64,000 nt of DNA from Blastocatellia bacterium (GTDB taxonomy: Bacteria > Acidobacteriota > Blastocatellia > UBA7656), in assembly GCA_963765495.1 (NCBI GenBank), contig CAVXWP010000008.1:608001-672000 (forward strand), given 5' to 3'. Position numbers and translations under genes: made by a program. Each line of letters starts with the position of its first letter. Within the stretch, counting starts at the first letter, position 1. The notes under the pieces are model-generated. The model was not told where the DNA came from, did no database searches, and saw only the letters and a list, made by a program, of their open reading frames with translations. Shown piece by piece: positions 28,058 through 47,362 of this stretch.

Positions 28058-28170
28058 GCCTTTTTCACACATCACGCGGGCGACATGTGGCCGAAATCGC
28101 TCGCAAGCTTGCGCACAAATGAGACTACGCCGTATTGTTACTATTCAGGTCATATTTTTGGCCCGGCTAT

Positions 28171-30621: not shown

Positions 30622-30644
30622 CAGGCATCCTTTTACAATTTGCT

Positions 30645-30729
30645 CTAAATCGAAATGCAAGAGATTGGTACAAATGAATCTGCCTTTCATTCAAATTCAT
30701 TTGTACCAATCTCTTGCATTTCGATTTAG
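30645..30729. repeat. Perfect 35-bp inverted repeat with 15-nt spacer (MITE/REP-like)
   Basis: CTAAATCGAAATGCAAGAGATTGGTACAAATGAAT and its exact reverse complement at 30695-30729; a degenerate arm occurs at 53721-53752. Confidence 0.9.
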
Positions 30730-30795
30730 TCTGGAAAATATTTTCCCGCTCGCATTCATCTGAGATTTCAAATCTCATATCCGGGGCCGACATCT

Positions 30796-32619
30796 TCAAG
30801 GCCGAGCAAAGACTATCGGCTGGGCGGAGCTAATTCCCTTCCCTTCCTGAATAACTATCTCTTGATTGGCACCAACATCGGACAGATTATCCACCTTTCC
30901 TGAAGGCCATGCCACCTCTATCGAAGCGATCTTGTCTGCTTTGCCGAGTCCGAAGGTCAAAGGCAATTCGCTCGTCGAGGCATAGCTCGACCCGGTCTTC
31001 ACTACCTGCCACAACTTTACCCCGCTTGTGAGCTTCAACGTGACCTTTGCGCCTATCCCGTCGCGATTCGACTGAGTGCCCACGGTCTTTATTCGAAGCA
31101 GATTGTTCTGGTTTCCTCCGTCGTTTCGAATCAAACGGGCCGGTCCGTTGTTAGTAGAGATAAGGAGGTCCTGGTCTCCGTCATTATCGAAATCGCCATA
31201 GGCCGCGCCTCGCGATACCATAGCGACCTGAAGCGCCTGCCCGAGTTTCGGTGCCATCTCTTCAAATTTTTTCTTACCGAGATTGCGGAACAGATGAGGC
31301 GGCTCGGCATACTTTACCTTTGGCTGCACCTTGTTTATGTCGTCGGATACATGGCCGTTTGCGGCAAAGATGTCGGGCAATCCGTCCAGATCGTAATCGA
31401 AAAAGAAGCAGGCGAAAGAGAGCGTCAAAAGCGACGACTGGCCTATGGCCGAAGTCGGGGCCTCGTCTATAAACAACCCCGTCCCCTCGTTGTGATAAAG
31501 CGCCATCATCTCGTTTGAAAAATTGCCGATGATAAGCCCCTGTCGGCCCGATCCGTCGTAATCGGCCGCGTCAACTCCCATGCCTGCGCGGGCGGCCCCT
31601 GTCTCGCTGAAGGCGACTCCCGCCGTCATCGCCTCATCCGTAAATGTGCCGTCGCCCTTGTTTCTGTAAAGCTTGTTCGGCTGAGTGTCGTTGGCCACAA
31701 ACAGGTCGGTCCAGCCGTCGCCGTCATAATCGATCAGAGCCACGCCCAGAGACTTCGAGCTTGGATCTTTCAGCCCGGCGCGTTCGGTAGCGTTCTCAAA
31801 CGTCCCGTCGCCCTTGTTGTGGTAAAGCGTAGAGCTTTGTCCCTTGTAGGACTCGGGCGTGCAATATGACTTGTTCTTGCCGTCGAGCGTGCAGACAAGG
31901 TCTTTTTCAATCGTCCACTCGACATAGTTGCAGACAAACAGATCGAGTTTGCCGTCCTTGTCATAATCGAAAAAGGCCGCGCTTGTCGAAAAGCCGGGGT
32001 CCGCGACACCTGCCTTTGCGCCCACCTCAAGAAAACGGCGTCCGCCCTCGTTATGAAAGAGGCGATTGGCTCCGAGACAGGTGATATAAATGTCGTCGAA
32101 ACCGTCATTATCATAATCGGCCACGCTACAGCCTATCCCGTACATCTCTACGCCGAGCCCGGCTTCTTTCGTCACATCGGTAAAAGTGCCGTTGCGGTTG
32201 TTGTGATAAAGAGCCGGGAAAGATTGCGCTCCCTTATGATCAGGCCAGTTCATCGAATTCACGAGCAGGATGTCCTGCCAGCCGTCTGCGTCGTAATCGA
32301 GAAAGGCACAGCCAGACCCTACGGTTTCCGGCAGGTACTTCTTTCCATAAGCGCCGTTGTTGTGTTTGAATCGAATGCCTGCCTGCGAGGTTACATCGGT
32401 AAACTCGATGGGTCCCGTGTAGCGCGCGGCATCCGTTGGCGCGAGGGCTTCTACCTGCTGCGGTTGTTGTTCCGAGGCGTCAGCAGAACTTGCTTCCTGC
32501 TTCGCCCCTCCGTTTGTCGGAGTGTCGTCGGCCGTCGGAGCCTTTACGCATCCGAAAAGAGATAACGGCAATATGATTAAGAGGAATATGCTGATTAGCT
32601 TCTTTTGCATATGATTCAC
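30796..32619 (-). CDS. CRTAC1-family lipoprotein (FG-GAP repeats plus ASPIC/UnbV domain)
   Basis: Lipobox LFGC; repeated DYDxDGxxD motifs; SRGAAYGDFDNDGD; SNRDGIGA...TFGLG...WPSG. Confidence 0.88.
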   Translation of the reverse strand: MNHMQKKLISIFLLIILPLSLFGCVKAPTADDTPTNGGAKQEASSADASEQQPQQVEALAPTDAARYTGPIEFTDVTSQAGIRFKHNNGAYGKKYLPETVGSGCAFLDYDADGWQDILLVNSMNWPDHKGAQSFPALYHNNRNGTFTDVTKEAGLGVEMYGIGCSVADYDNDGFDDIYITCLGANRLFHNEGGRRFLEVGAKAGVADPGFSTSAAFFDYDKDGKLDLFVCNYVEWTIEKDLVCTLDGKNKSYCTPESYKGQSSTLYHNKGDGTFENATERAGLKDPSSKSLGVALIDYDGDGWTDLFVANDTQPNKLYRNKGDGTFTDEAMTAGVAFSETGAARAGMGVDAADYDGSGRQGLIIGNFSNEMMALYHNEGTGLFIDEAPTSAIGQSSLLTLSFACFFFDYDLDGLPDIFAANGHVSDDINKVQPKVKYAEPPHLFRNLGKKKFEEMAPKLGQALQVAMVSRGAAYGDFDNDGDQDLLISTNNGPARLIRNDGGNQNNLLRIKTVGTQSNRDGIGAKVTLKLTSGVKLWQVVKTGSSYASTSELPLTFGLGKADKIASIEVAWPSGKVDNLSDVGANQEIVIQEGKGISSAQPIVFARP

Positions 32620-35498
32620 CTTGATTGAACGTAGGTCTTGCCGGGCTTTTTCGGCCTCTGCGCCTGATACCCGGGGGTCTGTTTGCGAGCCGAGTCAAGA
32701 GCAGACTGATGCTCGTGAATCTGCTGCCGCTCGTTGTTGTCTTCGGGATGAAGCTTGCGATAGGGACCGGTTATAAACTGCGCCGTTTCGTCGGCCTTGA
32801 ATCGCTTGTAAAGCGTCTGTTCGCTTGCGGCAAGCTCGGAATTGCCGAGCCCCTGATAACAGAGCATCAGATTATAATGCGCCTGCAAGTCTTCCGGGTC
32901 TATTTTGAGAACCTTCTTAAACTCCTCGATTGACTCTTTATACTGGCGTTTGAGAAAGAGTATGCGCCCTATCTGATTCACAACCACTCGATCACGCGGA
33001 TACTGAGCGGCGGCAAATCGCAGATGATCCAGCGCCTCATCGTATCGCCCCATTGGCTTGATCGCCATCGCCAGGAAGAAGTGAGTCTTCGCCAGTTGGG
33101 GATTGACTTCGAGCGCCTTTCGAAGCACCCCTTCTGCCGCCTGCATATTTCCTTCCTGGATTCGCGCGCGGGCTATGTTGACCCATCCGTCCGCATACTC
33201 GGGCTCCATCTCGGTCACTTTCAAAAAGGCCGCCTCGGCTCCCTTGATGTCGCCCTGTAAAAGCAAGCCTATCCCGTAATCGTTCCATCGCTCGCGGACC
33301 GACCTGTCCAGATACGGCTTTGTTTCAGGCACGGGCGCATCTTTTGGAAGGACCGTCAAAGAAGCCTCGTTATAAGCCATCACGGTAATCGGGATATTGG
33401 GTATCGCTTTGATCTTGCCCGATACGTTCGAAGTGTCCCCCGTAAATACCCATCGCCCGTCATCGTATCCCGGACCAATCGCGTACCCCGTGTGTTCAGG
33501 GTCGCGCACCCCTGCAAAGGCCCATTGCGTGTTCCACCAGGAGAATTTGCGATAATTGACCTTCGCCCTGAGATAGATTTTATCGCCGCAGTTTTCAGGA
33601 ATGTTTAACCGATAATGGATCGTGTCGGCCGCGCCGGGCGGAATCAATCTGACGTAAGCGACCGAACGCGTGGCCCAGGCATTGCGTTTGTTTATTACGT
33701 TGCCGTGCTCGTCAAGCATTCGGCTTCGATAAAAATGCGCCCCCTCATCGACCGGCCCGCGTCCACCGTCTTCGACCATCCCGCTGTGAAATATCGGCTG
33801 CCCACGGTCGTCGAATGCTTCCAGCTCTACCCACACGTCAAAGGCGTCAACTGTTCCTCCGGGAAAGAAATGGCCGACCTTGCGAGTTCGCAAAACCACT
33901 TCAACACGAACCGATTCGCCTCGTCTTACCGCCGCATCTACTTTGCCCAGCGGGCCTACAACCTCGACCGGCTTCGAGATGAGCGCCTGTTGCGCCCCAA
34001 AATTCATAGACTCTTCGCCCACTCCGAATGTGCTTGCTATTCGCGGCTCTTCCTGAGACTGATTCTTCCTTGCGACAGGCTCTTCGGGCGCATCCGTGCG
34101 GGCAAATCCGAAAATATCAATCGAGACCTGATTATCCTTCAGAAAATCCTGAATTACCTTTATCTGCGTCTCGTCCTGATTGACAAACGGCACAGCAGTG
34201 TTTGCTCCGGGGAATCGGTGCGAATGCACTTTCCCGTCAGTGGCTGCCGGGTCGTTTGCCTCTACGAGCGGCATGTGACAATCGGCGCATTTTTGCGGCT
34301 TGGGCGGGTAGTAGAACGAGCGAGCGCCTTCGCCCGATACGCCCGAAGCCTGCCAGTTGTCGTATTCGTTAAATCCGCGAAACCAGCGATAACCGTTGAC
34401 GGGCACATCAAGGTGGACCTTGTGACAGGACGAGCAGAATTCCGGCGTCTGATCCGTATGAAACTCCTTCAGGAAAGTAGCCTTGTGCGGCTGCGGGTCA
34501 ATAAACAGGAGCTTGTCGTGCATCCACTGGAGGTACTTGTTCTTGCTCACGGCCAGATCGTGGAGCGGCGGGTATTCGATAGTGAAATCGGCCTGTCCCA
34601 TCGTGCTCTTGACGTGGACGATTGAATGGCAGGAAGTACAACTCAAACCGTTTTGCGCTTCGGGCGTATTGATCTGCTCTTTTATAGGCTTATCAAACCG
34701 CCCGTTGAAAAAGACCGCGTGGTCGTGGCAGCCCGCACACCATTTCGACGGCTGTGTGCCTATTGTGTCCTGCATGTACTCGACAGATTTCCGGTACCAC
34801 TGATTGTTAAAGGAGGCAAAATGGTGAGCCGACGAGTTCCATTGATCGTAAATCGCCTTATGACACCTGGCGCAGTCTTCGCTCGTCATGAAGAAAGTAG
34901 AAGGGATGGTGCCTCCGACATTCGTCTCGGCCGAGGACGGAAAGAACGGCTTGCCGGGGCCGCCGCCCTCTCCTTCCATCGTAGGCGGCGGGCTATCGGG
35001 ATTGATGACCCTCCCGCGCGATGGCATTGCATAATGGTTGAAAGCCGTCGTAGCGACCGGAAAAATGAAAATGAAGATGACAATGCACAGATAAACCAGC
35101 CGCCTCTGGCTTGACGCGATATAGCTGCGTGTGTGCGAGAAGATATAGATCAAAAGTGGGATAGACCCCGCAACAGCCAGAGCTATGTGAGCATAAAGCA
35201 CCCACCTGTACTGCTTTATCGACCCGTACTTCATTATAAACATGCCGAGCGCAGTGCTTATTGCCAGAGCCCCGGCCCCGATTTTCACAAAGAGCGGGAA
35301 CTCGGCAAAACGCCTGAAGAAATAGAGCGCAAACAAAAGGGCCAGCCCAAGCCCCAGGCCCATGTGAAAGACTACGTTTCCGAAGTAGAAAAGCGTAGGG
35401 TCGGCATAAGCGGCGAGGTACGAGCTATTTACGAGCAGGATGAAGAAACCTATGACCAGTAATTTCGCAGTCATATTGCCGGCATTGCGGGAAATCAT
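32616..35498 (-). CDS. Membrane-anchored multiheme cytochrome c (c554-like) with C-terminal TPRs
   Basis: About four N-terminal TM helices; five CxxCH motifs (CARCH, CAGCH, CTSCH, CSSCH, CADCH); TPRs; GGAGG RBS before ATG 35498. Confidence 0.85.
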   Translation of the reverse strand: MISRNAGNMTAKLLVIGFFILLVNSSYLAAYADPTLFYFGNVVFHMGLGLGLALLFALYFFRRFAEFPLFVKIGAGALAISTALGMFIMKYGSIKQYRWVLYAHIALAVAGSIPLLIYIFSHTRSYIASSQRRLVYLCIVIFIFIFPVATTAFNHYAMPSRGRVINPDSPPPTMEGEGGGPGKPFFPSSAETNVGGTIPSTFFMTSEDCARCHKAIYDQWNSSAHHFASFNNQWYRKSVEYMQDTIGTQPSKWCAGCHDHAVFFNGRFDKPIKEQINTPEAQNGLSCTSCHSIVHVKSTMGQADFTIEYPPLHDLAVSKNKYLQWMHDKLLFIDPQPHKATFLKEFHTDQTPEFCSSCHKVHLDVPVNGYRWFRGFNEYDNWQASGVSGEGARSFYYPPKPQKCADCHMPLVEANDPAATDGKVHSHRFPGANTAVPFVNQDETQIKVIQDFLKDNQVSIDIFGFARTDAPEEPVARKNQSQEEPRIASTFGVGEESMNFGAQQALISKPVEVVGPLGKVDAAVRRGESVRVEVVLRTRKVGHFFPGGTVDAFDVWVELEAFDDRGQPIFHSGMVEDGGRGPVDEGAHFYRSRMLDEHGNVINKRNAWATRSVAYVRLIPPGAADTIHYRLNIPENCGDKIYLRAKVNYRKFSWWNTQWAFAGVRDPEHTGYAIGPGYDDGRWVFTGDTSNVSGKIKAIPNIPITVMAYNEASLTVLPKDAPVPETKPYLDRSVRERWNDYGIGLLLQGDIKGAEAAFLKVTEMEPEYADGWVNIARARIQEGNMQAAEGVLRKALEVNPQLAKTHFFLAMAIKPMGRYDEALDHLRFAAAQYPRDRVVVNQIGRILFLKRQYKESIEEFKKVLKIDPEDLQAHYNLMLCYQGLGNSELAASEQTLYKRFKADETAQFITGPYRKLHPEDNNERQQIHEHQSALDSARKQTPGYQAQRPKKPGKTYVQSR

Positions 35499-35988
35499 TT
35501 TTTCCTCCGGTTGTCCGATCAGACCTCGGATACAACAAGGCACTTGAAATCAATATTTATTGTCTTGCGATTTTGAACTTGCCTGTCGGCATCCCTTTGA
35601 GCGGGGCCTATTATAAAGGAAAGCCCTCCAAAGATAAACCTCAGTTCGCGCATCTGTTGTTTCCCTTCTTGCATTCTCAGTGCCGATTAACTTTCAGAAA
35701 TGGCCCTGCGCATTTCTCGCCTTTTTGCGAAGCGCACAAAGTACGCAAGGTTATTTCATAAAGCAATTGGTGGTTTCCTGCCGTAGAGCAGGTAAATCTG
35801 AGAAAAAAAATGGCTCTGTGCATTCTCAAACTTTTTGGTTATTATTTTGCTGTCCGTTTGTAAGATAACACTCCAGGTGCGAGCTCTACTTGAACACTGA
35901 TGCGCCTCAATAAACGCATTCCCGTTCGAGCCTGACTCTTCTACTTTTTTCGCGTTCGTTTGGCCGTCAGATCAGGAGGAAACCAGGA

Positions 35989-36255
35989 ATGTCCATCCCC
36001 TCATTCTCGGGTGATAAGATATGGTGCCCGCTCTGTAATAGTTTTCTCAAATTCATCCAGGTACGGAGCGCCGCAAAGCTCATAGACGTTCATAGAAGAA
36101 CCATCCATCGGTACATAGAAGATGGGAGAGTCTATGCAATCAAAGTGGCAGGGACAAGCTACCGCGTTTGTTGTGGATGCCTGTTGTCGCCAGAAACCCG
36201 CCCTCTCGAAAACCTTCGCAAAAAAAGTGTGACAAAGCGGGACATTGAGGGTTGA
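35989..36255 (+). CDS. Small excisionase-like (MerR/HTH_17) DNA-binding protein flanked by CxxC motifs
   Basis: AGGAGG RBS; WCPLC...VRSAAKLIDVHRRTIHRYIEDGRV...RVCCGC. Confidence 0.7.
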   Translation: MSIPSFSGDKIWCPLCNSFLKFIQVRSAAKLIDVHRRTIHRYIEDGRVYAIKVAGTSYRVCCGCLLSPETRPLENLRKKSVTKRDIEG

Positions 36256-36462
36256 ACCGAGTGTAATGTTCGATATATTATGCTTGAGCCGAATCAGGGG
36301 TTCCGATCTGCTCGATAGTGGCCAGCGGCCTGGATTGAATAATATACTCCCCCACCCAGCATTGGGGGCTTATTCACCTTGAATAGCTTGATGTTCTGCG
36401 GGTCTTAGGTTCCCAGGGAATCTGTCTCGCGTAAAGAGACCCCTAAAGACCCGGGGAGGCAC

Positions 36463-37548
36463 ATGAAAATATCGGCCAGAACATTTTTCCTCCTGCTTCT
36501 CACCTTTGCATCCTTGCCGGGATTTGCTCAACACGAGTTTGCTCAGACGCAAAAAAATCCGGGTAACACGCTATCTGACGGTAAGACCGTCGTCGCATCA
36601 TTGAACGACAGGCATATAACCAAAGAAGAGGTTGATGGATTGATTGGTTCTCAACTATTCGAACTGCAGGAAAAGATATACAACCTGCGCAAGGCCGCTA
36701 TCGACAAACTGTTAACAGGAATCCTCCTGGAGGAGGAGGCCAGGTCAAGAGGAATAACAGTTGAAGAGCTACAGCGCCAATTTATACCGGAAAACCCTCC
36801 AATCGAACCCGACCGCATAGACGAAGCATATCTCGAAAATGCCGGAGCTGTGAGCGGGATGAATGAGGCTGAGGCAAGACAGAGAATCAAACTGGATCTT
36901 GAAGCACAACTCAAAATGAAGGAGTATAAGGCTGCCATAGATAGCCTCAGAAACAAGGCCCGCATCACTATCTTTATTACTGCCCCTATCGCTCCCAGGA
37001 TGAGTCTTAGCCCTGATGGACCCGTTAGAGGAAACAAAGATGCAGCGATAACCATCATTGAGTTTTCAGACTTCCAATGCCCTTATTGCAAACAGGCGAC
37101 CGCCATACTCGATCAGGTTTTGCAAAGTTATGACGGTGAGGTAAGACTCGTCTTTAAGCATATGCCCCTGGGAATCCACCCGGAGGCCCTCAACGCCGCC
37201 AGGGCCGCCTACTGCGCCGACCGACAGGGGCAATTTTGGGGCTATCATGATCGCCTTTTCGAGTCAGGGCAACTCGATATCGAATCGCTCAGACAGCAGG
37301 CCGTCCGTATTGGACTGAAGACTACTGAATTCGACAGATGCCTGGAATCAGACGGCAGTCGCGCCGCAGTTTTAGCGGATATGTTGCAGGCAAAACGGGC
37401 TAACGTGCAGGGAACTCCCAGTTTCTTTGTGAACGGGAGACTTTTAAGGGGGGCCAGGGGCATAGAAGATTTCAAGAAAGTGATTGATGAAGAACTTGAA
37501 AGAACAAGAAAGGAAAACCGAACTAAAGTAAATGGGGCTCCAAAATAG
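36463..37548 (+). CDS. DsbA/thioredoxin-fold oxidoreductase with SurA-N-like helical domain
   Basis: Signal peptide; IIEFSDFQCPYC, FKHMPL and cis-Pro loop GTPSFFVNG; RBS GGAGG. Confidence 0.9.
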   Translation: MKISARTFFLLLLTFASLPGFAQHEFAQTQKNPGNTLSDGKTVVASLNDRHITKEEVDGLIGSQLFELQEKIYNLRKAAIDKLLTGILLEEEARSRGITVEELQRQFIPENPPIEPDRIDEAYLENAGAVSGMNEAEARQRIKLDLEAQLKMKEYKAAIDSLRNKARITIFITAPIAPRMSLSPDGPVRGNKDAAITIIEFSDFQCPYCKQATAILDQVLQSYDGEVRLVFKHMPLGIHPEALNAARAAYCADRQGQFWGYHDRLFESGQLDIESLRQQAVRIGLKTTEFDRCLESDGSRAAVLADMLQAKRANVQGTPSFFVNGRLLRGARGIEDFKKVIDEELERTRKENRTKVNGAPK

Positions 37549-37576
37549 CCGCTGGAAATTAGCTATCTGCGGCGGC

Positions 37577-37608
37577 CCGGTGGTGGGAATTTCCGGTGGT
37601 GGGAATTT
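37577..37608. repeat. Perfect tandem duplication, 2 x 16 bp (CCGGTGGTGGGAATTT)
   Basis: Read directly from the sequence between the DsbA gene and the next gene. Confidence 0.85.
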
Positions 37609-37644
37609 ATTGATCTTAACCGAAAGAATAAGTGAGGTGCAAAA

Positions 37645-38349
37645 TTGAAGACTCTGAAAATTGCAGCGATAATGATGGCAGGTTCTTTTATGTTTCAGGC
37701 GCAGGCTTCAAGAGCTATATTCGCACAACAGCAGAATCTCCATCGTGTTGTGATCACTTCTAGAGGGGCAGATATACAGGCCAACGCTCCTGATTTTGCT
37801 CTTCTAATTCGCGCCTATGGGAAACTGGCTAAGTTCATCAAGGCCGGTAATGCACGTACGACCTCAGGCGGGCAAAACAGGAAACAAATCGAGGCTGACG
37901 ACATAAGATTTGAGATATGGAACGTGCACACAGGCCCTGTTGAAGAGATTTACGACAGACCTTATGGCCAGTTGGTGACAAAACCGAGCGGTAATATACT
38001 TCAGATCGTACCTGGCACAGTCAGTCGAAACGGGAGGCCTGCCCGGGTGCTCTATCAGGCAGCATGGGCGGCTAATGAGTTACCAGAGGTTCCCACCGAA
38101 GACTGGGATAAGATAACCGTGAGAAAGGTTCTCGCCGGGATGGAAAAGGAAATGCCTCCTGCGAAAACCTACACCTCTTATGAAGTTAGAATTCAATTCA
38201 AGGGGCAAGCGCGAAGTTACGCTGCGGTAGCGTTTCATCACAAGGCGCTTTCGGATTCTGATGCCCCGATAATCAGTTTTACAGATAACATTGTCGGTCA
38301 ATCGGCTTTAACAAGGGCTTATCTTGAAACGCTTCCGGCTGTTGAATGA
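37645..38349 (+). CDS. Secreted hypothetical protein; stand-alone copy of the N-domain of the 38688-39911 protein
   Basis: TTG start after GAGGTG; signal peptide; aligned blocks shared with the downstream paralog; no Cys. Confidence 0.8.
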   Translation: MKTLKIAAIMMAGSFMFQAQASRAIFAQQQNLHRVVITSRGADIQANAPDFALLIRAYGKLAKFIKAGNARTTSGGQNRKQIEADDIRFEIWNVHTGPVEEIYDRPYGQLVTKPSGNILQIVPGTVSRNGRPARVLYQAAWAANELPEVPTEDWDKITVRKVLAGMEKEMPPAKTYTSYEVRIQFKGQARSYAAVAFHHKALSDSDAPIISFTDNIVGQSALTRAYLETLPAVE

Positions 38350-38404
38350 TCGAATCGTCCTCTCGATTTCAGACAACCCGGATGCCGCAGGGTCACATTA
38401 TGCC

Positions 38405-38493
38405 TGTCTCCGCAGTGTGGAAACGGCGGTGATGTTGCTCAGAAACTCCGAGTATCGCAGGTGATCTATTGGTTGCGTCCACAGGCGGAGACA
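38405..38493. other. Long imperfect stem-loop between the two paralogs
   Basis: TGTCTCCGC/GCGGAGACA, TGTGGA/TCCACA and an inner TGCTC/GAGTA pairing. Confidence 0.5.
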
Positions 38494-38687
38494 TATAAGT
38501 ATAAATTTGAGCCGGGCGCTCTGGTTCATCCGTCCTCATCCCTGTTCATCAGGCGTTGCAGGATAAGTGTTGTTTTTTGACTGCTGTCCAAACCTCGCAA
38601 GTTCAGACCGGATAAGAAGCCGAGTTGTTATATCTGGTCTATAAGACAACCTATTCCCCCATCACCCAGGTTCAAGGAGAAATTAAC

Positions 38688-39911
38688 ATGAAAAGAATAG
38701 CAAGAGCATTTTGGGTAACCATATGTGTGTTTTCAGTGATCAGTTTCTCTTCTACAATAAGCATTGCATCCGGCGACACAGACGGAGACAAGGAAACTTC
38801 GATTCGGAAAGCTTATGAAAGGCTGAGCTTGTATAATACGGCTGCCAACCGTGAAATCTCTGCGGAGAGGGAGATAGCCTATACTCCAGAAACCGATCTA
38901 AAGTTTGAGTTATCCAATTTTCAGACTGGCCCGATTGAAGATATTGCCGCAAGGCCCATCGGTGCGCTCGTTACGAGACCCTCGGGAGATGTCATCGAGG
39001 TAACAACTCATGAACACAGTTACCAGGGAGGTCCTTCGCATGTCATTTATGAAGCGAAGTGGATCACAAGTGAATATAATGCAAGTCAGGTTGAAGATTG
39101 GGACAACACATCCATAAATCAGGTACTGGGACTGACAGGCAATTCGGACGCAAACGAATATGTATCCTATGAGGTTCGAATGTGGTTTGAGGGCAAAGCT
39201 CGAAGCTATCAGGCAATGGCTCTTTATTCCACTATCCCACAATCCGGGGTGAAGCCAAAGGTGCTCCTGTTGGATAACATAATAGGAGTGCCCGCCATAA
39301 ATCAGGTTTTATCCGAGGAGCGCCCACCAATGAGGGCCCCCTGGTTTAAGTATGTTAAGAGCAAACAATACGGCGAGTATCTCCAGGCATTTCAGCAGGC
39401 TGACGGAGACTACGCAAGGGCTAACGAAATTGTGAAGCCCTCCGAAGGGGCCGGAGGTGAGTATTGGGAACCCGAAGAGATGGAATCCCACGGCGAAGTC
39501 CCCCCATCATTTGCACAATGCCCGCCGCAGACTTTTTTGGGGCCTCTGACAGGAAGGTCTCGTGGCGGCACCGAGTATCATACCTTTGGACAGCACAAAG
39601 TTGAGAGCCAGATGCAAGGAAGATGTGAAGACGATGAAACATGTCAGACCACCTGCATGGTTCAATTGTTGAGTACGAATCTCAAAGACACCGGCCTTGC
39701 CCTCACCTGTCATGCATTTGGGCAAAATGTAAAATACGACGACGCGAGCGGTTATAGACCCTTAAGTTGTAAAGCGACCTATGGCGCTGCCGTCAAGGCA
39801 TGCCTTTTTTGCCTATGCAACGTTACCGTTGAGATTTTGGGGACAACGGTTGTATCAGATGGATTCTGGAACTTTGACCAGAGTGTATCCTATGACTGTT
39901 GTCATCATTGA
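38688..39911 (+). CDS. Secreted hypothetical protein: shared N-domain, acidic linker and Cys/His-rich C-terminal domain
   Basis: AAGGAG RBS; signal peptide MKRIARAFW...; 11 Cys in the last ~130 aa; ends DCCHH. Confidence 0.85.
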   Translation: MKRIARAFWVTICVFSVISFSSTISIASGDTDGDKETSIRKAYERLSLYNTAANREISAEREIAYTPETDLKFELSNFQTGPIEDIAARPIGALVTRPSGDVIEVTTHEHSYQGGPSHVIYEAKWITSEYNASQVEDWDNTSINQVLGLTGNSDANEYVSYEVRMWFEGKARSYQAMALYSTIPQSGVKPKVLLLDNIIGVPAINQVLSEERPPMRAPWFKYVKSKQYGEYLQAFQQADGDYARANEIVKPSEGAGGEYWEPEEMESHGEVPPSFAQCPPQTFLGPLTGRSRGGTEYHTFGQHKVESQMQGRCEDDETCQTTCMVQLLSTNLKDTGLALTCHAFGQNVKYDDASGYRPLSCKATYGAAVKACLFCLCNVTVEILGTTVVSDGFWNFDQSVSYDCCHH

Positions 39912-39961
39912 CGAACTTTAGGCATTCTGTCCTAACTCGAAATGTTCGATAAATTTAACGC

Positions 39962-39997
39962 TGCCGTGATGTGCCTTCGGAGCGCATCACGGCATTT
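39962..39997 (+). terminator. Terminator hairpin with C(UUCG)G loop closing the cassette
   Basis: TGCCGTGATG / CATCACGGCA stem, CTTCGG apex, followed by TTT. Confidence 0.65.
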
Positions 39998-40311
39998 GAC
40001 CGACCTCCATCTATAAACCAATTCATCAAACCAGTTCATTCCGCAGGACGCTTGCACCAACGAGGCTCCCGGAGAAATTGCGCCATATTCTTTCCCGCAT
40101 CCTCTGCCCCACGATTATTGCCCGGTTTGGTCATATCTTCCTCCATCAACCAATATCGGAGTCCTGGACCAGAGGATTATCCGCCCGATAATCTCGATTG
40201 AGAGTTGCAAATCTCGCAGAGTTGCAATGTTTCCATTCATCGCGAGTACGCATTTCCCACAACTCTATGATTGATTACTCCTGAAAGCCTGCTTTTTGCT
40301 ACTATAATGCA

Positions 40312-40326
40312 TGGCCCCTGAATTGC
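40312..40326 (+). promoter_or_regulatory. Possible sigma-54 promoter upstream of the L,D-transpeptidase gene
   Basis: TGGCCCCTGAATTGC has GG-N10-GC spacing, but a TATAAT at 40303-40308 offers a sigma-70 alternative. Confidence 0.35.
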
Positions 40327-40342
40327 CGATATTGGTTTTGAT

Positions 40343-41119
40343 ATGAATAACGATGGATTTGTGACCAAAATGCAAACACTATCCCGGCTGCCGGCCACTC
40401 GTTTCCTGGCTGTCATCCTCATCATCGGCACGCTGGGATTTTCTGATGCTCTGGCTGTGCAGAAGAAGTCAAGGAAAACAAAGATCGTTCAGAAAACAAA
40501 GCGGCTGACCAGGCAAGAGATTCAGGATGCCGAGCAAAGGCTAGCCGATCTGGGATACTGGACCGGGCCGATTGACGGCAAATTCGACGCAGATTCAAGG
40601 GACGCTTTGATAGCCTTTCAGAAGGTCGAAAGACGCGAGCCAACCGGTCGACTGACATTAGAAGAACTGACCGCACTAAATGAGGCCAAAAGGCCAAAAC
40701 CTCGCGATGCAAGCTACGGCCACGTGGAAGTGGATCTGAGTCGCCAGGTTCTTTTCGTCGTGGATGAAAACGGCGAGGTATCGAAAGTGCTGCCCGTTTC
40801 TTCCGGCAGTGGAGAAGAATTTACATCCGAAGGCTGGACCCGCGATGCCATAACTCCCGTAGGTCGATTCAAAGTACACAATAAGATTGACGGCTGGCAT
40901 AAGGCTCCGCTCGGGATGTTGTATTACCCGGTATATTACCTTGGCGGGATAGCAGTGCATGGCAGCAATTCGGTCCCCGTACATCCAGCGAGCCACGGGT
41001 GCGTTCGAATCCCCGTGTTCGCCGCAAAAGAGTTCAACGAAATGACGGCGATAGGAACCTGGATAATCGTCTACGATGACCAAACCACGAATATGCCGAT
41101 GGGCGAGCCGGGACCGTAG
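40343..41119 (+). CDS. L,D-transpeptidase (YkuD) with peptidoglycan-binding domain
   Basis: PG-binding QRLADLGY.GPIDG...AFQ; catalytic AVHG...SHGCVR. Confidence 0.9.
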   Translation: MNNDGFVTKMQTLSRLPATRFLAVILIIGTLGFSDALAVQKKSRKTKIVQKTKRLTRQEIQDAEQRLADLGYWTGPIDGKFDADSRDALIAFQKVERREPTGRLTLEELTALNEAKRPKPRDASYGHVEVDLSRQVLFVVDENGEVSKVLPVSSGSGEEFTSEGWTRDAITPVGRFKVHNKIDGWHKAPLGMLYYPVYYLGGIAVHGSNSVPVHPASHGCVRIPVFAAKEFNEMTAIGTWIIVYDDQTTNMPMGEPGP

Positions 41120-41123
41120 GTGC

Positions 41124-41160
41124 AAAAAATAATGCCCGCCTCCTAAAAGGAAGCGGGCAT
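41124..41160 (-). terminator. Rho-independent terminator of the TonB receptor gene (possibly bidirectional)
   Basis: ATGCCCGC.TCCT / AGGA.GCGGGCAT stem with an A run on the left. Confidence 0.7.
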
Positions 41161-41183
41161 ATGAGAGAGTTCTGTTTACCAGT

Positions 41184-44100
41184 TTACCATTGAACGCCGA
41201 CAGCAAATCGAGCTTCGCGCGGTGCCTGGAAGTTGCTCGCCTTTCCAAAGCGCGGGTCAACCGCCAGTCCCTGTGCCGCTATTCTCTGCTGCCAATCTCC
41301 ATTCGAGTTGATGAAGATCGGGAATGCTACATCAAACGAATCATTCGCATTTCCGTACTGCACTACCTGGCCCGGTGCCAGATAGTTGGCAAATATGTTC
41401 GTCACATTTCTCTCATCAAACAGGTTGAATACGTTCATCGAGAAACGCAGCTTCACGTTCTCCGTCAGCTTGATCAGGTGATTGACCACCAGATCTGTCT
41501 GCGTAAAGGTCTCTGTTCTCCCCAGATCGCCTCGGCCTTCCGGGTAGATCTCCGCTCCGCCCCCTCCGACGTGCTCCGATAGGATCGTCGAGATCGGCGT
41601 GCCTTGATAGATCAACTGAGTTCCTCCTACATCCGTAGTCATTCCCCAGTAGTGGAACTGATAGCTGGCAAATGCCTTGAACGTGTTGGGTCGATCCGTT
41701 GCCAACCGGCCGAGTACCTGATTCCCGTGTGTATCGTACACAAGCTCAGGAAGGTCGAAGTAGCGGTTTACGTTCGGGCTTGTTCGTCCATTTCCTGCTG
41801 CGTCGACTTCGTCCGAGCTTGCAAGCCCGGAGTAGTTTCCATACAGCTTGCTGTAGGTGTACGACAGATTCGCGTACCAGTTGTTTGTGAACCTCTTGTC
41901 GAGCCTCAACTCAAGCCCTGTATACTCGCGTACAGCCTTCGGCGTCGCTGGATTGAAGTCCGTTATCGACACTCCAAATCCCGGGTTGCCTATCGTGTAC
42001 ACTTCGTTGCCCGCCGCGTCGAGTCCGCCGATGTCTTCTATCGTTCGGTCAAGTTTTTTGCGGGTAAGCCGCGCACTCGCCACAAGGTTTGTGCCCAGCG
42101 CATAGTCGCCGCCTACAGTGTACTCACGCTCTCTGGTAGGTTTGAGGTTCGGGTCAATCGTGGGCCGCTCACCGGCAAGCACTACGTTTGACGGTACGCG
42201 GAAATCAAGCGGTCCGTCAATGATGTTGCCCGGTGTGTTGCCGAGATTGATGCTTGTGAAGTCCGGCGTGTTCAACTCGTACCAGGTTCTGATGAAGTGA
42301 TCGCCGCCAAACGAGCCGCGTGGAAGCTCATACTTCATCGTGTCATAGAATATTGAGAAGCTGCCGTAGACTTTCAGCTTTCCGGTTCCGAATACATCCC
42401 AGGCCAATCCGACTCTCGGCGCGATCTTGTCGCCCCAGCCAAAATCAATCGGCTTGGTCGAAATCTGCGCGTCGGCTGGAATGGTCGGGTGGAAACGGGT
42501 GTCAATCGGGAATGCGGGCAGGAACTCATTCTCAATGCGGAGACCGATGTTTGCGGTCAAGCGAGGATGAATCTGCCACTGATCCTGAACGAAGAAACCC
42601 TGGTTCTTGCTGTTGACATCGCCTTCGGTTCCGAAGTCGGTCACGCGATAGTAACCATAAGTTCCTGATTCGCCCAGATAGGTCCGGCCAAAGTAGAAGT
42701 TGATGATCCCGCCCTGATAGGCCTCGTTGACCTTGTTGCTGAGGCGGTTGACCTGATAGCCACCCTTGAAGGTGTGCTGCTGGCCGAGGAACCTCGTGAT
42801 GTATGTGGCATCAAAGTTGAGGTTTGTACGGCGAGTGATGTTAAAGGCCGTCGAAAAGTTGGTCTGTATGATCGGTGTGCCCGTCGTTGTCGATCCGGCA
42901 GCGCATCCGCTCAACGGAGGTGCACACGCTACAGATATCGTGTAGAGCGGTACCCCTACGGGAATGTCATAGTTGGTGCCTTTGTCGTTGAGATAGGTGT
43001 GGCCGCCTCGGAAGCTCAGGATCAGGTGATCCGTCGCCGAATAGTTCGCTCCGAATGCTGCCTGCCACGACGGCACGAATCCGCCCTTCTCACCCAGTCG
43101 GATGTCATTGAAAGAGGTTGAACTGCTAACTTCCTGAGCCAACAACGACCCTTCCGTCTTAACAGGGCTGTTGATAAAGTTGCCGTATACCGAAAGCCTG
43201 TCGCTTGCGGCCCAGTCAAGCCGCCCCAGGAAGTAGTCGATTTTCTCTCTTTGTGTGATAAAGCGGGTGTCAAGCGAATCTACGCCCACGCCCGGGTTGA
43301 CACGGATTAGATCGGTGCGCCGAGTCGTTTTTGTGTACTGTGGCGCATAGCTCGTGTAGAACCATACGTGATCCTTGAGGATAGGACCTCCGATGTTGAT
43401 GATCGGGCTGAAAAATCGTGTCTTGTCCTTCCCGTCCCGGTTCTCGAAATAATCGAATGTGTCCTGATTTTCCGGCGCTAGCCGCAGTGTCGGGTTGTCT
43501 TCGGCTCGGAACGTGTCAGACGTGTACTCGAATCGCAGTTCCCCGTGGAAGTCATTCGTCCCACCTCTGGTCACTACGTTTACAACTCCGCCTGTCGCTC
43601 CGCCGTACTCTGCTTCGTAGCCCGCGCTCTTTACCTGAAGTTCCTTTACGAAATCGTTCGGAATGTTCTTGGTTCGGCCAAGAGTTCCGTCTTCGATTCT
43701 GGTAACTTCCACGCCGTCTACGATAAAGGTGTTCTCGGCCCCAGATGCTCCATCAATCTGGAATCCGCCGGTCTTGCTCTCTGCGCGGGTTCCGGGAGCT
43801 ACCTGGATCAGCGAAGAGAAGTTGAGCGTCTTCGGTATGACGTTGATCTCTTGCTGGGTCACGTTTGTAGCCGTCTTTGTAGAGGTCACGTCCACCAGCG
43901 GCTCGTCGGCTGCCGTGATCGTCACTTCTTCTCCACTTACAGCAACTTCCATGTCGAAGTTTACCTGCAAGGTCTTCCCGAGCTCGACAGGCACCTTCTC
44001 GCGCTTGACCGACTTAAAGCCGGTGCCCGATGCCGTAACTACATATACACCCGGCGGCAATGACGAGATGGTGTAGTTGCCAGCAGAGTCGGATGTGGTC

Positions 44101-44312
44101 TTAAAGGTTTGTCTATCACTCGTAGCAGTGATGGAAGCATCGGGGATGACTGCTCCGGCCGGGTCCTTGACCGTCCCCTGAATGCTACCGGAAATCTCCT
44201 GAGAAGAGGCCAGGGCTGAAAATGCAGAGCCGGGGCCGATCAGGAGAGCGATGAGCATGAGAAAGCTGCTCACCTTACGGAAAGAACCTTTTATCGATAG
44301 GATTCTATTCAC
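41184..44312 (-). CDS. Oar-like TonB-dependent receptor with carboxypeptidase-regulatory-like N-domain
   Basis: Signal peptide; GTVKDPAGAVIP; plug motifs IDGASGAENTFIVDG and AEYGGATGGVVNVVTRGG; C-terminal aromatic residue (VGVQW). Confidence 0.92.
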   Translation of the reverse strand: MNRILSIKGSFRKVSSFLMLIALLIGPGSAFSALASSQEISGSIQGTVKDPAGAVIPDASITATSDRQTFKTTSDSAGNYTISSLPPGVYVVTASGTGFKSVKREKVPVELGKTLQVNFDMEVAVSGEEVTITAADEPLVDVTSTKTATNVTQQEINVIPKTLNFSSLIQVAPGTRAESKTGGFQIDGASGAENTFIVDGVEVTRIEDGTLGRTKNIPNDFVKELQVKSAGYEAEYGGATGGVVNVVTRGGTNDFHGELRFEYTSDTFRAEDNPTLRLAPENQDTFDYFENRDGKDKTRFFSPIINIGGPILKDHVWFYTSYAPQYTKTTRRTDLIRVNPGVGVDSLDTRFITQREKIDYFLGRLDWAASDRLSVYGNFINSPVKTEGSLLAQEVSSSTSFNDIRLGEKGGFVPSWQAAFGANYSATDHLILSFRGGHTYLNDKGTNYDIPVGVPLYTISVACAPPLSGCAAGSTTTGTPIIQTNFSTAFNITRRTNLNFDATYITRFLGQQHTFKGGYQVNRLSNKVNEAYQGGIINFYFGRTYLGESGTYGYYRVTDFGTEGDVNSKNQGFFVQDQWQIHPRLTANIGLRIENEFLPAFPIDTRFHPTIPADAQISTKPIDFGWGDKIAPRVGLAWDVFGTGKLKVYGSFSIFYDTMKYELPRGSFGGDHFIRTWYELNTPDFTSINLGNTPGNIIDGPLDFRVPSNVVLAGERPTIDPNLKPTREREYTVGGDYALGTNLVASARLTRKKLDRTIEDIGGLDAAGNEVYTIGNPGFGVSITDFNPATPKAVREYTGLELRLDKRFTNNWYANLSYTYSKLYGNYSGLASSDEVDAAGNGRTSPNVNRYFDLPELVYDTHGNQVLGRLATDRPNTFKAFASYQFHYWGMTTDVGGTQLIYQGTPISTILSEHVGGGGAEIYPEGRGDLGRTETFTQTDLVVNHLIKLTENVKLRFSMNVFNLFDERNVTNIFANYLAPGQVVQYGNANDSFDVAFPIFINSNGDWQQRIAAQGLAVDPRFGKASNFQAPREARFAVGVQW

Positions 44313-44779
44313 GGATTCTCCTCCAAAAAATAAAATGCTTTTGCAAAGCCTATTGTCAGGAAAGCTATAGCTTGCCTACTAATACAAGCAATTGCGCTGT
44401 TCCCACCTTATTCAATCGAAAGCCAAAAGATACCGAAAATTTCAAAAATTTGAACTTTCAGTTTAAAGTTTTGATTTTCATCATTTTGCGTTCGATTGAG
44501 TTTGCCAATTCAACCTTTATCAGTAGCAAAGTGAGGGCCAGAGGGTGGGTTATACGGGCACGATTCGGGCAATTCCCTTTCGGTTCTAAACAAAAGTTTT
44601 TTTCTCAGTGAAAAAAAGCCGAACTATGTGAAGGCGAATCGATATGAAATTATCCAAGTATTTGTAGATTATCCATGATTTCGGAGAAGGGCCATTTACA
44701 GCGTTTTAGGCTGAATCGCGAGGGAATTCATTTTTTTGGAATCGTGTAATTGAGGATACAATTATTGTAAATGTAGGGT

Positions 44780-45994
44780 TTAGCTAGAAGTGGATTGAGA
44801 TATTGCATCTAAATTTATCTTGTACCGCTTTATCATATTGTGAAGGGTGGTCTGGTTGATCCCGAGCATTTTTGCCGCATCCTTCTGTTTTCCATTTGCC
44901 TGTTGGAGCGCCCGATGAATCAGGTCGATTTCAAAGCGACTGACTTCATCATAAAAACTTATGCTCCGCTCCATTTCGAGCTTAACACTTGGTCCCTCAG
45001 GTGCGTTCATCTTATCCATCATGTCAGCGGCTGCCGTCAAAGCTGCCGACATCTCTTTTAGGAGTTTGACTCTGATGCTAACAGAGCTGTCTTCGAGGGC
45101 ATCGCTCTTTGTAAGAACAGGCATGGCGGAGTCCGTATTCTTATGACTATTCAATCCCGCTTTCTTCTCTTCGGAGAGGCTGCGAACGATTGATTGCATT
45201 CTTCCGCCGCCGACCATCGAACCGACTATCTCCACTTCAAATGGAGCCCCATCCTTGCCGCGTAACCGGCGAATCTTTCGGACGGTCTTTCCCGTGAGCA
45301 AATCCGAGAAGTCTGCCGGGTCATGAGCGAGGTCTTCGAACGGGATAAGGTCTTCGGCGCCGAGCCGGAGCAATTCCTCTCGCGTGTACCCAAGCATTTC
45401 GCAGGCTCTTGGGTTCACATCCGTGAAATTCCCTCTCTCATCGAATACGAAAACGGCATCCGAAGATTGCTGCATCAACATTCGGTACTTCATTTCGATC
45501 TCATTTATCGTCGTCTCAGCGTGCTGGTAATCGGACACATCAATAACGAGGACCGCCAGACCATTGAGCGCACCGCTTATGGAACGTAAAGGAAGAAACG
45601 AGCAGGACCATTGATGAGCAACTCCCGGTTCCAACTTTGCCTCGCCGGTTATTTTCACATCAAATAAGGCCTCGCCGGTTGAAACGACGCTCTGCAAGGC
45701 GTGCTCGACAAGCGGAGATTCATAAGGAAGTATATCGCTGAGATTCTTCCCAAGGTGATCGCCCGCAGGCAGACCGCTCATTCTGGCAAGCTCCTCATTG
45801 ATTCTGAAATATCGAAAATCCGTATCTATGATGGCAAGCCCGACCGGCATTATAGTGAACAGTGAATTAAAGCGTTCCTGCAACAGGTGTAATTCTTTTT
45901 GAAGTGCTTCTCTTTCGGCAGCCTCACCGGCCAGTAATGCTTTTAAGTTTGCGGTTTCGTCATCTCTCTGCTTTTTGGTCATAAAATCTGCCAT
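44780..45994 (-). CDS. Two-PAS-domain protein with C-terminal Fis-type HTH
   Basis: Two PAS segments (MPVGLAIID..RINE; DAVFVFDERG..DVNPRACEMLGY); Fis HTH ALQQANGKQKDAAKMLGINQTTLHNMIK. Confidence 0.85.
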   Translation of the reverse strand: MADFMTKKQRDDETANLKALLAGEAAEREALQKELHLLQERFNSLFTIMPVGLAIIDTDFRYFRINEELARMSGLPAGDHLGKNLSDILPYESPLVEHALQSVVSTGEALFDVKITGEAKLEPGVAHQWSCSFLPLRSISGALNGLAVLVIDVSDYQHAETTINEIEMKYRMLMQQSSDAVFVFDERGNFTDVNPRACEMLGYTREELLRLGAEDLIPFEDLAHDPADFSDLLTGKTVRKIRRLRGKDGAPFEVEIVGSMVGGGRMQSIVRSLSEEKKAGLNSHKNTDSAMPVLTKSDALEDSSVSIRVKLLKEMSAALTAAADMMDKMNAPEGPSVKLEMERSISFYDEVSRFEIDLIHRALQQANGKQKDAAKMLGINQTTLHNMIKRYKINLDAISQSTSS

Positions 45995-46250
45995 AAGCCC
46001 AGTATATTTCTATGTACGTATCTCTGTTGCGTCCCGTTACTATATTTTTACCTTCACCCCCCCCAATTGGTTCCATTATTTTTATGCCAGCATTTTTATG
46101 CCAGGGTTTCAAGACTGACCAGGACAAGGTTTGGTTGCCCGCGAACTGTATGCAAAACGGGCAAGAGATATTTAAGCCGGTTTTTCAGATTATGACGAGC
46201 CCGCTGTCAAGCATCTCAAGGCATAGGCAGAGTGATGGGGTTATATTCAA

Positions 46251-47129
46251 TCAGGAGTTTTCCCGTATTCGTATGACATCTACCGAGCAGTGCGCGTGCA
46301 TGGCTACGGCTTCGGAAACGCTTCCCATAAACAGACGCAGAAATCCGCGCCGCCCGTGCGAACCTATAACTATCAAATCTGCGCCCCACTGTTTTGCATC
46401 GTCGATGATGCGCTCTTTGGGGCTTCCCAAAAGTACAACCCCCGAGGCTTTCAAACCACTGTCGGCAATCAGCTTTCTCGAAGTCTCCACATCCTTTTCG
46501 GCCACGGTTAATTCCGCTCGTGAAAGGTTATCCGGGTTAGATGAGCCCCCTTGCTTTTCAATCGTCTGAGCCACGCAAAGGACTCTTACCTCGCTTGCTT
46601 CGGGCCAGGGGCGGTCGGCAACGGATCGCGCCGCCGCAATTGAGTTTCGAGACCCGTCCGTGCAAAGAAGAATCTTTATCCCGAATGATTCCCGGGCTTG
46701 CTGATTGCGGTCATAACGACGCACGATTCCTACCGAACAGGGGGCGCGCCTGACGACATCAAGGGCGACACTGCCAAGAAGGAAGCGGGTAATGCCGCTC
46801 TGCCCCTCCGAGCCTACTATGATGAAATCGGCCCCCCACTGACCCGCAAATTCAATAATAGACGTGGGCGGGTATCCTTCCGTGATCGCAATGCCTGTCT
46901 TGAGTCCGGCAAGCGCGAGCCGGTCGGTTGCCGAAGAGAGCAGAGTGCGAGCGGCTTCGGCATCGGCTTCGTCAACGGGACGGCCCCCGCCAAGCCCCGA
47001 AGGCAGGGCAAACAGATCGAGAACCGTGAGGGTGCGAAATTCCGACCCCTCGGGCCAGGACCGGCGGACGATTTCGCTTATGACAGTCTCTGCTGACTCG
47101 GAAGAATCTATGGCGATGACTATCTTCAT
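46251..47129 (-). CDS. Tandem-domain universal stress protein
   Basis: Two Usp domains: KIVIAIDSS...GSVALDVVRRAPCSV and KILLCTDGS...GSHG...GSVSEAVAMHAHCSV. Confidence 0.92.
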   Translation of the reverse strand: MKIVIAIDSSESAETVISEIVRRSWPEGSEFRTLTVLDLFALPSGLGGGRPVDEADAEAARTLLSSATDRLALAGLKTGIAITEGYPPTSIIEFAGQWGADFIIVGSEGQSGITRFLLGSVALDVVRRAPCSVGIVRRYDRNQQARESFGIKILLCTDGSRNSIAAARSVADRPWPEASEVRVLCVAQTIEKQGGSSNPDNLSRAELTVAEKDVETSRKLIADSGLKASGVVLLGSPKERIIDDAKQWGADLIVIGSHGRRGFLRLFMGSVSEAVAMHAHCSVDVIRIRENS

Positions 47130-47362
47130 GACTTATGCCTTTCAGATCGGCGCGGATGTTATCCACTTTCTTCCCAACCATTCTAATGAAACTCTATTCA
47201 AATCACACGCGCAGTCTCTCACAACAGAGGTTTTTAATCTTCTCTCTGTGTCTGCGGTGTCTCCGTGGCAGAGCTTAACTCTTCTGAATCGCTGGAATGA
47301 TTCGCATCCGAGAGGCTATAATCCGTTGGCAATAAATATTTCTCGTCCGAGAGCCGCACTCG

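Follow-up and report, generated by a model that had tools for sequence, protein, structure and literature searches.

An extra DsbA-family enzyme encoded beside an exported client protein that carries disulfides is the arrangement of DsbL/AssT, SrgA and BcfH. AssT is a native substrate of DsbL and needs its disulfide, SrgA is encoded on a virulence plasmid (PMC6067686), and BcfH is a trimeric DsbA-like protein (PMC8900818). Here, we analyzed a similar arrangement in a Blastocatellia bacterium, at positions 35989..39997 of a 64-kb stretch (the window; 608,001-672,000 of contig CAVXWP010000008.1). In this block, a DsbA-like enzyme is encoded together with a small helix-turn-helix (HTH) protein and two exported paralogues: the client, which has an N-terminal domain (N-domain) and a Cys/His-rich C-terminal domain (C-domain), and a solo protein that has the N-domain alone. 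The likeness to the described pairs lies in the linkage, which holds for 61 of 64 related genes encoding both domains (N+C genes). The differences are that the lineage is Acidobacteriota and not Enterobacteria, that the client belongs to an unnamed two-domain family known here from sequence alone, that the enzyme carries a SurA-N-like domain of ~150 amino acids (aa), and that, in contrast to the DsbL/AssT type, no DsbI/DsbB-like partner gene is adjacent.

The thioredoxin/DsbA domain of the enzyme is similar to those of ScsC and BdbD (4gxz, 3e-14; 4xvw, 1.2e-13; 3eu3, 7.1e-13), with the CPYC motif and the cis-Pro loop aligned. However, its N-terminal domain is SurA-N-like and not the short trimerising helix of ScsC, and the locus lacks the scsABD context of an scs operon. 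DsbC and DsbG combine a chaperone/dimerisation domain with a thioredoxin domain and are suited to clients with several non-consecutive disulfides. The resemblance of the enzyme to them is one of concept only, a redox domain joined to a domain that holds the substrate; their sequences are unrelated (the DsbG model gave 2.1e-4 and 20.6 bits against a cut-off of 124), and the catalytic domain here is of the DsbA type with a helical insert. A DsbA-like enzyme with an N-terminal extension from Corynebacterium diphtheriae, CdDsbA, acts on the metal-handling exported protein CueP, which it reduces (PMC4546943). The C-domain has no homology with CueP, and searches of Pfam and NCBIfam gave nothing CueP-like.

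Linkage of a DsbA-like enzyme to the gene for its probable client

Loci were collected by scanning genome contigs with a degenerate DNA motif for the N-domain. Of the 87 stretches so obtained, 80 had 2-kb flanks and 85 contained the N-domain. As the motif covers 86 of 151 known members at the protein level, this set is a sample. DsbA homologues were then counted by phmmer in the 80 full loci. The results showed a DsbA homologue directly upstream, and on the same strand, of 61 of the 64 N+C genes (E values of 1e-60 to 1e-111, median gap 12 nucleotides (nt)). Two of the three exceptions are at contig ends, with 38 and 2 nt of upstream DNA, and the third (L079) is weighed below. Fifteen open reading frames (ORFs) had the N-domain but no C-domain. 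Ten of these were without DsbA, either in the upstream DNA (at least 1325 nt) or anywhere else in the locus, and four are fragments of three N+C genes with a DsbA (L011, L022 and L036) that are split or frameshifted; the last, in L068, is taken up below. The original prediction for this DNA, made from its letters alone, had held the DsbA to be dedicated to a disulfide-rich exported protein; with 61/64 N+C genes linked against 0/10 relatives lacking the Cys domain, this reading is well supported.

According to our tally of record titles, 82 of the 85 N-domain loci carry acidobacterial labels: Pyrinomonadaceae (45), unclassified Acidobacteriota (22), Blastocatellia (10), Thermoanaerobaculia (4) and Acidobacteriaceae (1). 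The others are one 'uncultured bacterium' and two 'Clostridia' bins. The latter two (L032 and L081, 'uncultured Clostridia' records) hold typical acidobacterial copies of the unit, the DsbA of L032 being 52% identical to that of the window, and the bins are probably mislabelled or contaminated. Adjacency of the pair holds up to a p-distance of 0.76 for DsbA and 0.81 for the client, and the two proteins co-diverge (Mantel r 0.92, with 0 of 999 permutations as high).

We consider it probable that enzyme and client form a two-gene unit, an exported foldase with its dedicated disulfide-rich client, which has been kept across Acidobacteriota and whose client is a metal-dependent enzyme or a metal-binding protein; an extracytoplasmic protein of one of these two kinds is our best guess from the conserved residues. 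The product of the first gene would be an exported fusion of a SurA-N-like chaperone domain and a ScsC/BdbD-type DsbA domain (CPYC here, CPFC in most relatives), and the second product a Sec-exported client with a Cys-free N-domain of ~180 aa and a disulfide-based C-domain of ~130 aa. We infer that, after export, the chaperone-like domain of the foldase holds the unfolded C-domain and that the foldase forms or shuffles its disulfides. The folded client would then act outside the cytoplasm, with a bound metal for catalysis or as a metal-binding protein, and the N-domain may serve as a carrier, a binding module or a pro-domain. The window holds a form of this unit with a solo N-domain gene between foldase and client and, upstream, an Xis/MerR-like HTH gene whose product may be a regulator.

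Several points weigh against this reading. Linkage was counted from the client side only, that is, from N+C genes to an upstream DsbA. The client gene of L079 has 1481 nt of upstream DNA without a DsbA, and in L068 a DsbA stands beside a gene without the C-domain. Moreover, 39 of the 61 linked loci lie in one syntenic block, with an AraC-type regulator gene upstream and an acyl-CoA dehydrogenase gene downstream on the other strand, and DsbA adjacency changes only twice on a 74-tip tree of the N-domain; given so few changes and a common block, the evidence is one of long retention and not of repeated gain. In the window, 1.1 kb separates the client from the DsbA gene, and since another gene and a 338-nt spacer lie between them, co-transcription is uncertain. 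The client has an odd number of Cys (11), the putative metal centre at its His298/His303/Asp-Glu334/His342 set is deduced from conservation, and the scanned ORFs of the 64 kb include no DsbB, VKOR or DsbD partner. On the supporting side, the pair is adjacent in the 22 of 61 loci without the AraC and acyl-CoA dehydrogenase neighbours, which include Thermoanaerobaculia and Blastocatellia other than Pyrinomonadaceae.

Some individual loci deserve description. L068 (365-2741) encodes DsbA followed by an N-domain with an extension, the C-domain being missing. L011 (465-4067) encodes DsbA, a 152-aa ORF with a signal peptide, and then the N-domain and the C-domain with its extension as separate ORFs, either a natural split or a frameshift. 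Six loci with N-only relatives and no DsbA (L025, L035, L037, L040, L043 and L045) have a different Cys-rich repeat protein ahead of the N-domain gene (for example, L037:3-737), with repeats of the form GGYWDS..C.C.YGCDPTG and no Pfam or NCBIfam match. Finally, two overlapping loci of one contig (L041 and L070), from a Blastocatellia metagenome-assembled genome (MAG), hold a tandem duplication of the N-domain gene and a 290-aa neighbour; one of the N-domain copies looks truncated.

Architecture of the probable foldase and client family

The enzyme belongs to the DsbA family, with matches to Thioredoxin_4 (6.7e-31, 108.1 bits; cut-off 23.2) and DSBA (8.5e-23, 81.6 bits; cut-off 25.6). Its N-terminal ~150 aa are SurA-N-like: Pfam SurA_N_3 gave 7.8e-5 and 23 bits in the window's enzyme, under the cut-off of 27.2, and exceeded this cut-off in the relatives L001 (28.6 bits) and L010 (30 bits). 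Besides the structures given above, 3gyk (7e-21) and 6nen were matched by the thioredoxin part; 4gxz is ScsC of Salmonella and 3eu3 is BdbD. The foldase has its CPYC motif in common with 4gxz, 6nen and 3gyk, and in the alignment its cis-Pro loop (GTPSF) falls on the GTPSF/GTPA loops of these three structures. A hydrophobic N-terminus and an AQ-H site would be in keeping with export (2.25, against 1.0 for the HTH protein, on a score for the h-region only). The original description of a CPYC DsbA-like oxidoreductase with a chaperone-like N-terminal domain is thus borne out, the latter domain at a sub-cut-off score. Among 59 DsbA homologues from related loci, 58 keep the two-domain architecture, and the active sites are CPFC (31), CPYC (18), CRFC (6), other CxxC (3) and none (1). 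No DsbI/DsbB-like membrane re-oxidant was found in the window or among the recurrent neighbours in the 4-kb loci.

A literature search found no description of a SurA-N/DsbA fusion. ScsC-type enzymes that have N-terminal extensions act as isomerases, the N-terminal domain setting the oligomeric state and hence the isomerase activity (PMC8900818), and an extra N-terminal domain may set isomerase versus oxidase behaviour (PMC8900818; PMC5524982). By analogy with ScsC, whose isomerase activity depends on its N-terminal domain, a client with three to five disulfides would be a fitting substrate for the SurA-N/DsbA fusion.

All Cys of the client (278, 313, 319, 323, 341, 361, 372, 375, 377, 404 and 405) are in its last 130 residues, and the solo paralogue has none, so that a tail with 11 Cys is indeed confined to the second paralogue. 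Conservation in the C-domain, which is ~130 aa long, was determined over 142 sequences (the alignment A6 holds 67). Six Cys (C313, C323, C361, C372, C377 and C404) are present in 97-100%, as are H298 (99%), H303 (100%), H342 (100%) and an Asp or Glu at residue 334 (99%; D334 in the client). Cys 278 and 319 co-occur (phi 0.96) and are present in about 45%, and Cys 341 and 375 co-occur (phi 0.98) and are present in 20%. The simplest reading is that the C-domain has three universal disulfides and two lineage-specific ones, C278-C319 and C341-C375, a pairing suggested by the co-occurrence of their members. The window's client has all five of these putative pairs plus Cys405.

More specifically, though only as a tentative proposal that we think less probable than its negation, the C-domain may be a disulfide-locked His3-carboxylate metal domain, restricted to Acidobacteriota and matured only by its own ScsC-like, chaperone-fused foldase, with the N-domain, including the solo form, as a regulatory or targeting partner. 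If true, this would make the C-domain either a small extracytoplasmic metalloenzyme of a new kind or a new fold for handling copper/zinc.

The same residues bear on an explanation that we regard as unlikely, in which the locus is a copper or metal-stress module: a ScsC-like reductase or isomerase would keep the client Cys reduced or repaired, the C-domain would bind metal and the HTH protein would sense it. The DsbA-like enzyme would then have the role that ScsC or DsbC has for CueP, and the C-domain would be a periplasmic defence or trafficking protein. The three invariant His and the Asp/Glu speak for such a module, but the six invariant, pairwise co-occurring Cys fit structural disulfides better than free thiol ligands. 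Solved relatives with CPYC in common include ScsC ('suppression of copper sensitivity', 4gxz, 3e-14), 6nen ('copper resistance protein') and 6mhh ('metal resistance protein'); however, they are no more than the nearest structures of the DsbA type, and scores for BdbD and ordinary DsbAs are similar. In favour of the explanation, CcScsC is an isomerase that binds Cu(I) (PMC8900818), and a DsbA-like enzyme reduces CueP (PMC4546943). Against it, the window contains no ScsB, ScsD, CopA, CusF or multicopper oxidase gene, and no ScsB/DsbD-like or ScsD-like gene was found among its scanned ORFs of at least 150 aa. The HTH protein has a weak MerR match (E 0.0088), whereas the regulator of the main clade is AraC-type and not MerR/CueR.

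To place both paralogues, a HMMER search was made with a profile built from the two, and it returned 471 representatives at E<=1e-3, of which 286 reached <=1e-10 and 44 reached <=1e-30; the representative clusters are almost all from Acidobacteriota, and names in the sources, where given, are 'hypothetical protein'. As the original prediction had stated, neither paralogue belongs to a named family: none was found in Pfam and NCBIfam (E<=0.1) or PADLOC and PHROGs (E<=0.01). Among PDB sequences, profiles of the whole protein (A2) and the N-domain (A7) matched none, and that of the C-domain (A6) gave one chance-level match (E 0.83). Searching Pfam with the 67 C-domain members one by one (E<=5) returned 0 recurrent families. 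A Pfam scan of 56 of the best 150 relatives assigned no family to 52; of the rest, two matched fn3, one matched TIG and one showed a Reprolysin-like stretch. The database structure model of the homologue P0006 is poor (pLDDT 0.36) and gave no usable structural match, and a literature search found no description of the N/C-domain family.

An h-region like that of a signal peptide is present in 184 of 191 complete N-termini of the family. The N-domain, ~180 aa long and Cys-free in 218 of 227 cases, has 12 conserved residues (Y58, G97, I102, G116, W141, Y176, Y179, V181, R190, Y192, A194 and D214 in solo numbering), all of which are retained in both window paralogues. It always comes first after the signal peptide, and the downstream modules differ: C-domain with a long extension (77 of 227), C-domain (73), other tails (54) or nothing further (23 solo forms). 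The tails include Ig-like ones, and that of P0023 contains HELGHAMGLGH and matches Reprolysin_3 (4.7e-7); HExxH occurs in 7 of 36 other tails. In most relatives, an extra extension of ~200-250 aa has EF-hand-like D.NGNG.ID loops and ends in GRWAWDVF (P0003 ~500-688; L003:2898-3482). The precomputed label PF26745 tracks this extension only (121/121 proteins with the tail, 0/3 without), and the window's two proteins lack it; the Pfam copy used for our scans is without a PF26745 model, and our literature search found no mention of this label.

These architectures raise a further explanation, which we also think improbable: the N-domain could be a pro-domain, that is, an intramolecular chaperone-inhibitor, the C-domain a disulfide-locked zinc hydrolase and the solo protein an inhibitor or chaperone in trans. 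The position of the N-domain ahead of varied tails (150 C-domain, 54 other and 23 solo of 227), the metzincin-like tail of P0023 together with HExxH in other tails, and the separate N and C ORFs of L011 agree with this explanation. The spacing of His, His, Asp/Glu and His in the C-domain may also be reminiscent of LAS-type zinc peptidases. However, no C-domain member matched a peptidase family even at E<=5, no conserved cleavage site was identified, and the linkers are long and variable. Furthermore, the conserved Tyr, Trp, Arg, Asp and Gly of the N-domain would fit a binding module equally well.

The four-gene block and its surroundings

The block comprises four co-oriented ORFs on the + strand (Table 1), each preceded by a Shine-Dalgarno-like purine run, and ends in a hairpin. 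The client ORF as called spans 38625-39911; its start was set to the ATG at 38688 because GGAG lies upstream and the N-termini then align with those of homologues. The spacers between the genes are 207, 96 and 338 nt long, which makes transcription as one unit uncertain, and their folding is not unusual (z -1.45 for the DsbA-to-solo spacer). The 96-nt spacer holds a tandem 16-mer, which may have arisen by slippage or may bind a protein. The hairpin has 13-nt arms (39962-39974 and 39982-39994) that are 92% complementary and enclose a 7-nt loop with UUCG. For the 99-nt tail, the folding energy is -30.8 kcal/mol, compared with -19.9 for shuffled sequences (z -3.54), of which none out of 200 folds as well. 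The U-tract is weak (AUUUGA), and a scan for consensus terminators did not list the site. The sole Rfam match, a sub-threshold small nucleolar RNA, was taken as chance.

Table 1. Features of the four-gene block (positions in the window).
Feature	Position	Strand	Basis or remark
Small HTH protein, 88 aa, CPLC + CCGC motifs	35989..36255	+	ORF, AGGAGG upstream, Xis/MerR-like
Exported foldase, 361 aa	36463..37548	+	SurA-N-like + DsbA/ScsC-type thioredoxin domains
SurA-N-like domain of foldase	about 36562-36900	+	Pfam SurA_N_3, sub-cut-off
DsbA/ScsC-type thioredoxin domain of foldase	about 37012-37491	+	Pfam, PDB sequence matches
CPYC active site of foldase	37078-37089	+	residues 206-209
Tandem 16-mer, two perfect copies	37577..37608		DsbA-to-solo-paralogue 96-nt spacer
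Solo N-domain protein, 234 aa, 0 Cys, signal peptide	37645..38349	+	TTG start; hmmsearch 1.3e-52
N-domain of solo protein	about 37810-38340	+	hmmsearch
Two-domain client, 407 aa	38688..39911	+	signal peptide, N-domain, linker, Cys/His C-domain
N-domain of client	about 38793-39332	+	hmmsearch 2.1e-63
Cys/His C-domain of client	about 39516-39902	+	hmmsearch 2.1e-34
Stem-loop ending block	39962..39994	+	13-bp stem, UUCG in loop, weak U tail

The solo protein and the client share 36% identity over 176 aa (E 8e-34), consistent with the original view of them as paralogues with a common domain of ~190 aa, and the signal peptides assigned to both are supported by scores of 2.04 and 2.43, against 1.0 for the HTH protein, which refer to the h-region only. 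The nearest relatives of the solo protein are other solo forms (P0008, P0024 and P0019), solo proteins of its type end at the same alignment position (5/5), and it lies at a tree distance of 1.97 from the second paralogue. These data argue against a recent truncation as the origin of the solo gene; the family relationships indicate an old, separately conserved gene. No remnant of a C-domain was found in the 338-nt spacer, nor any further family copy in the window, and a word-index search with the solo protein returned itself alone. A solo copy between DsbA and client is particular to this window: 0 of the 61 linked loci have an intervening gene, and among the fetched loci an ORF separates DsbA from the N-domain gene only in the split locus L011. 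The role first suggested for the solo domain, as chaperone, immunity factor or assembly partner, is therefore a tentative one. It had been expected that homologues would be linked to DsbA and the paralogues to each other; the former is found, and the latter is seen nowhere else.

At the upstream end, the 88-aa protein is a possible regulator, judging from its HTH. Its scores are all below the cut-offs for excisionase or MerR membership (HTH_17, 1.2e-4 and 22.6 bits against 27; TIGR01764, 3.3e-6 and 27.4 bits against 28.8; MerR, E 0.0088 and 16.3 bits against 28.2), and the window contains no integrase. PDB matches of this protein are designed repeat proteins and were judged spurious. A homologue (53% identity over 47 aa) occupies the same position upstream of DsbA in one other locus, the Blastocatellia MAG L075; the fetched upstream DNA of other close relatives is too short to judge. 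An AraC-type regulator takes this position in 34 loci and is the type found in the main clade. As the type of regulator varies by lineage, the notion of a self-contained cassette that includes the HTH gene is not supported.

The impression that the block is richer in AT than its flanks was confirmed by computation: its GC content is 0.487 against 0.529 for the remainder of the window (lower in 3 of 120 4-kb windows), and GC content at third codon positions (GC3) is 0.46-0.53 in the four genes (z -2.0 to -3.9) against 0.602 +/- 0.036 in 35 others, no more than one of which is lower. Given the low GC3 of all four genes, the window's copy may have been acquired horizontally. Beside the low GC3, a 15-nt direct repeat (14/15 identical; 36265-36279 and 39941-39955) is worth mentioning: its copies lie 10 nt past the HTH stop and 30 nt past the client stop and so bracket exactly DsbA, solo paralogue and client. 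We estimate that chance would yield ~0.4 pairs of this kind in 4.5 kb, and the repeat is not significant by itself.

The flanks consist of ordinary chromosomal genes (multihaem cytochrome/tetratricopeptide repeat (TPR), YkuD L,D-transpeptidase, TonB-dependent receptor, PBP1, MurJ, ClpB-like ATPases and a tRNA synthetase). The downstream neighbour, YkuD, lies past the hairpin and 430 nt. On the other side, the gene for a multihaem cytochrome c fused to TPR (975 aa) overlaps an FG-GAP/ASPIC gene by 4 nt (30796-35543, - strand), and the two are likely an operon divergent from the cassette. A role of the DsbA in serving this cytochrome was rejected, as DsbA is tied to the N+C gene in loci without the cytochrome. 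Elsewhere, the sharpest GC trough of 28000-48000 is at 44250-45000 (0.38-0.41), between the genes for the TonB-dependent receptor and a PAS/Fis-HTH regulator, and two adjacent ORFs on the - strand, 23083-24459 and 24557-25192 (458 and 211 aa), matched nothing in Pfam at E<=1e-5.

The low GC3 of the four genes, a conserved N-terminal module with variable C-terminal parts and the bracketing repeat (with its chance expectation of ~0.4) could be taken as signs that the block is a horizontally acquired cassette for a polymorphic toxin or a bacteriocin, in which the solo paralogue would provide immunity or assist export. We consider this very improbable. The C-domain is conserved and not polymorphic; the next gene is not immunity-like but YkuD here and an opposite-strand acyl-CoA dehydrogenase in 39 loci; no mobile-element, integrase, transposase or T5/T6/T7 secretion gene was found among the window ORFs, and the block gave no plasmid, phage, PADLOC or PHROG match; and an immunity protein against a cytoplasmic target would not usually be exported, as the solo paralogue is. 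With 39 loci in one chromosomal context, the same evidence tells against the effector, toxin, adhesin or fibre subunit of the original prediction. Least probable of all is that a general periplasmic oxidase happens to lie beside these genes, for although no other DsbA-family gene was found in the 64-kb window, DsbA is directly upstream of 61 of the 64 N+C genes over Pyrinomonadaceae, other Blastocatellia and Thermoanaerobaculia, including the 22 differently flanked loci, and is missing beside the 10 Cys-poor relatives. The foldase and its client are probably a client-dedicated DsbA operon built from two unnamed domain families, and a new effector system is not supported.

Meaning for exported proteins of Acidobacteriota

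Acidobacteriota count among the most abundant bacteria in soil, and the majority of the proteins they export are uncharacterised. The present analysis defines two unnamed domain families with hundreds of clusters and ties one of them to a foldase of unusual architecture. Should the function of the client turn out to be ordinary, the claim of a 'novel effector system' would be replaced by that of a conserved housekeeping-like operon. The pair bears on how chaperone-fused DsbA enzymes choose their clients, on the laboratory production of this family through co-expression of the foldase, and on whether the invariant His/His/Asp-Glu/His site of the C-domain is a new metal centre.

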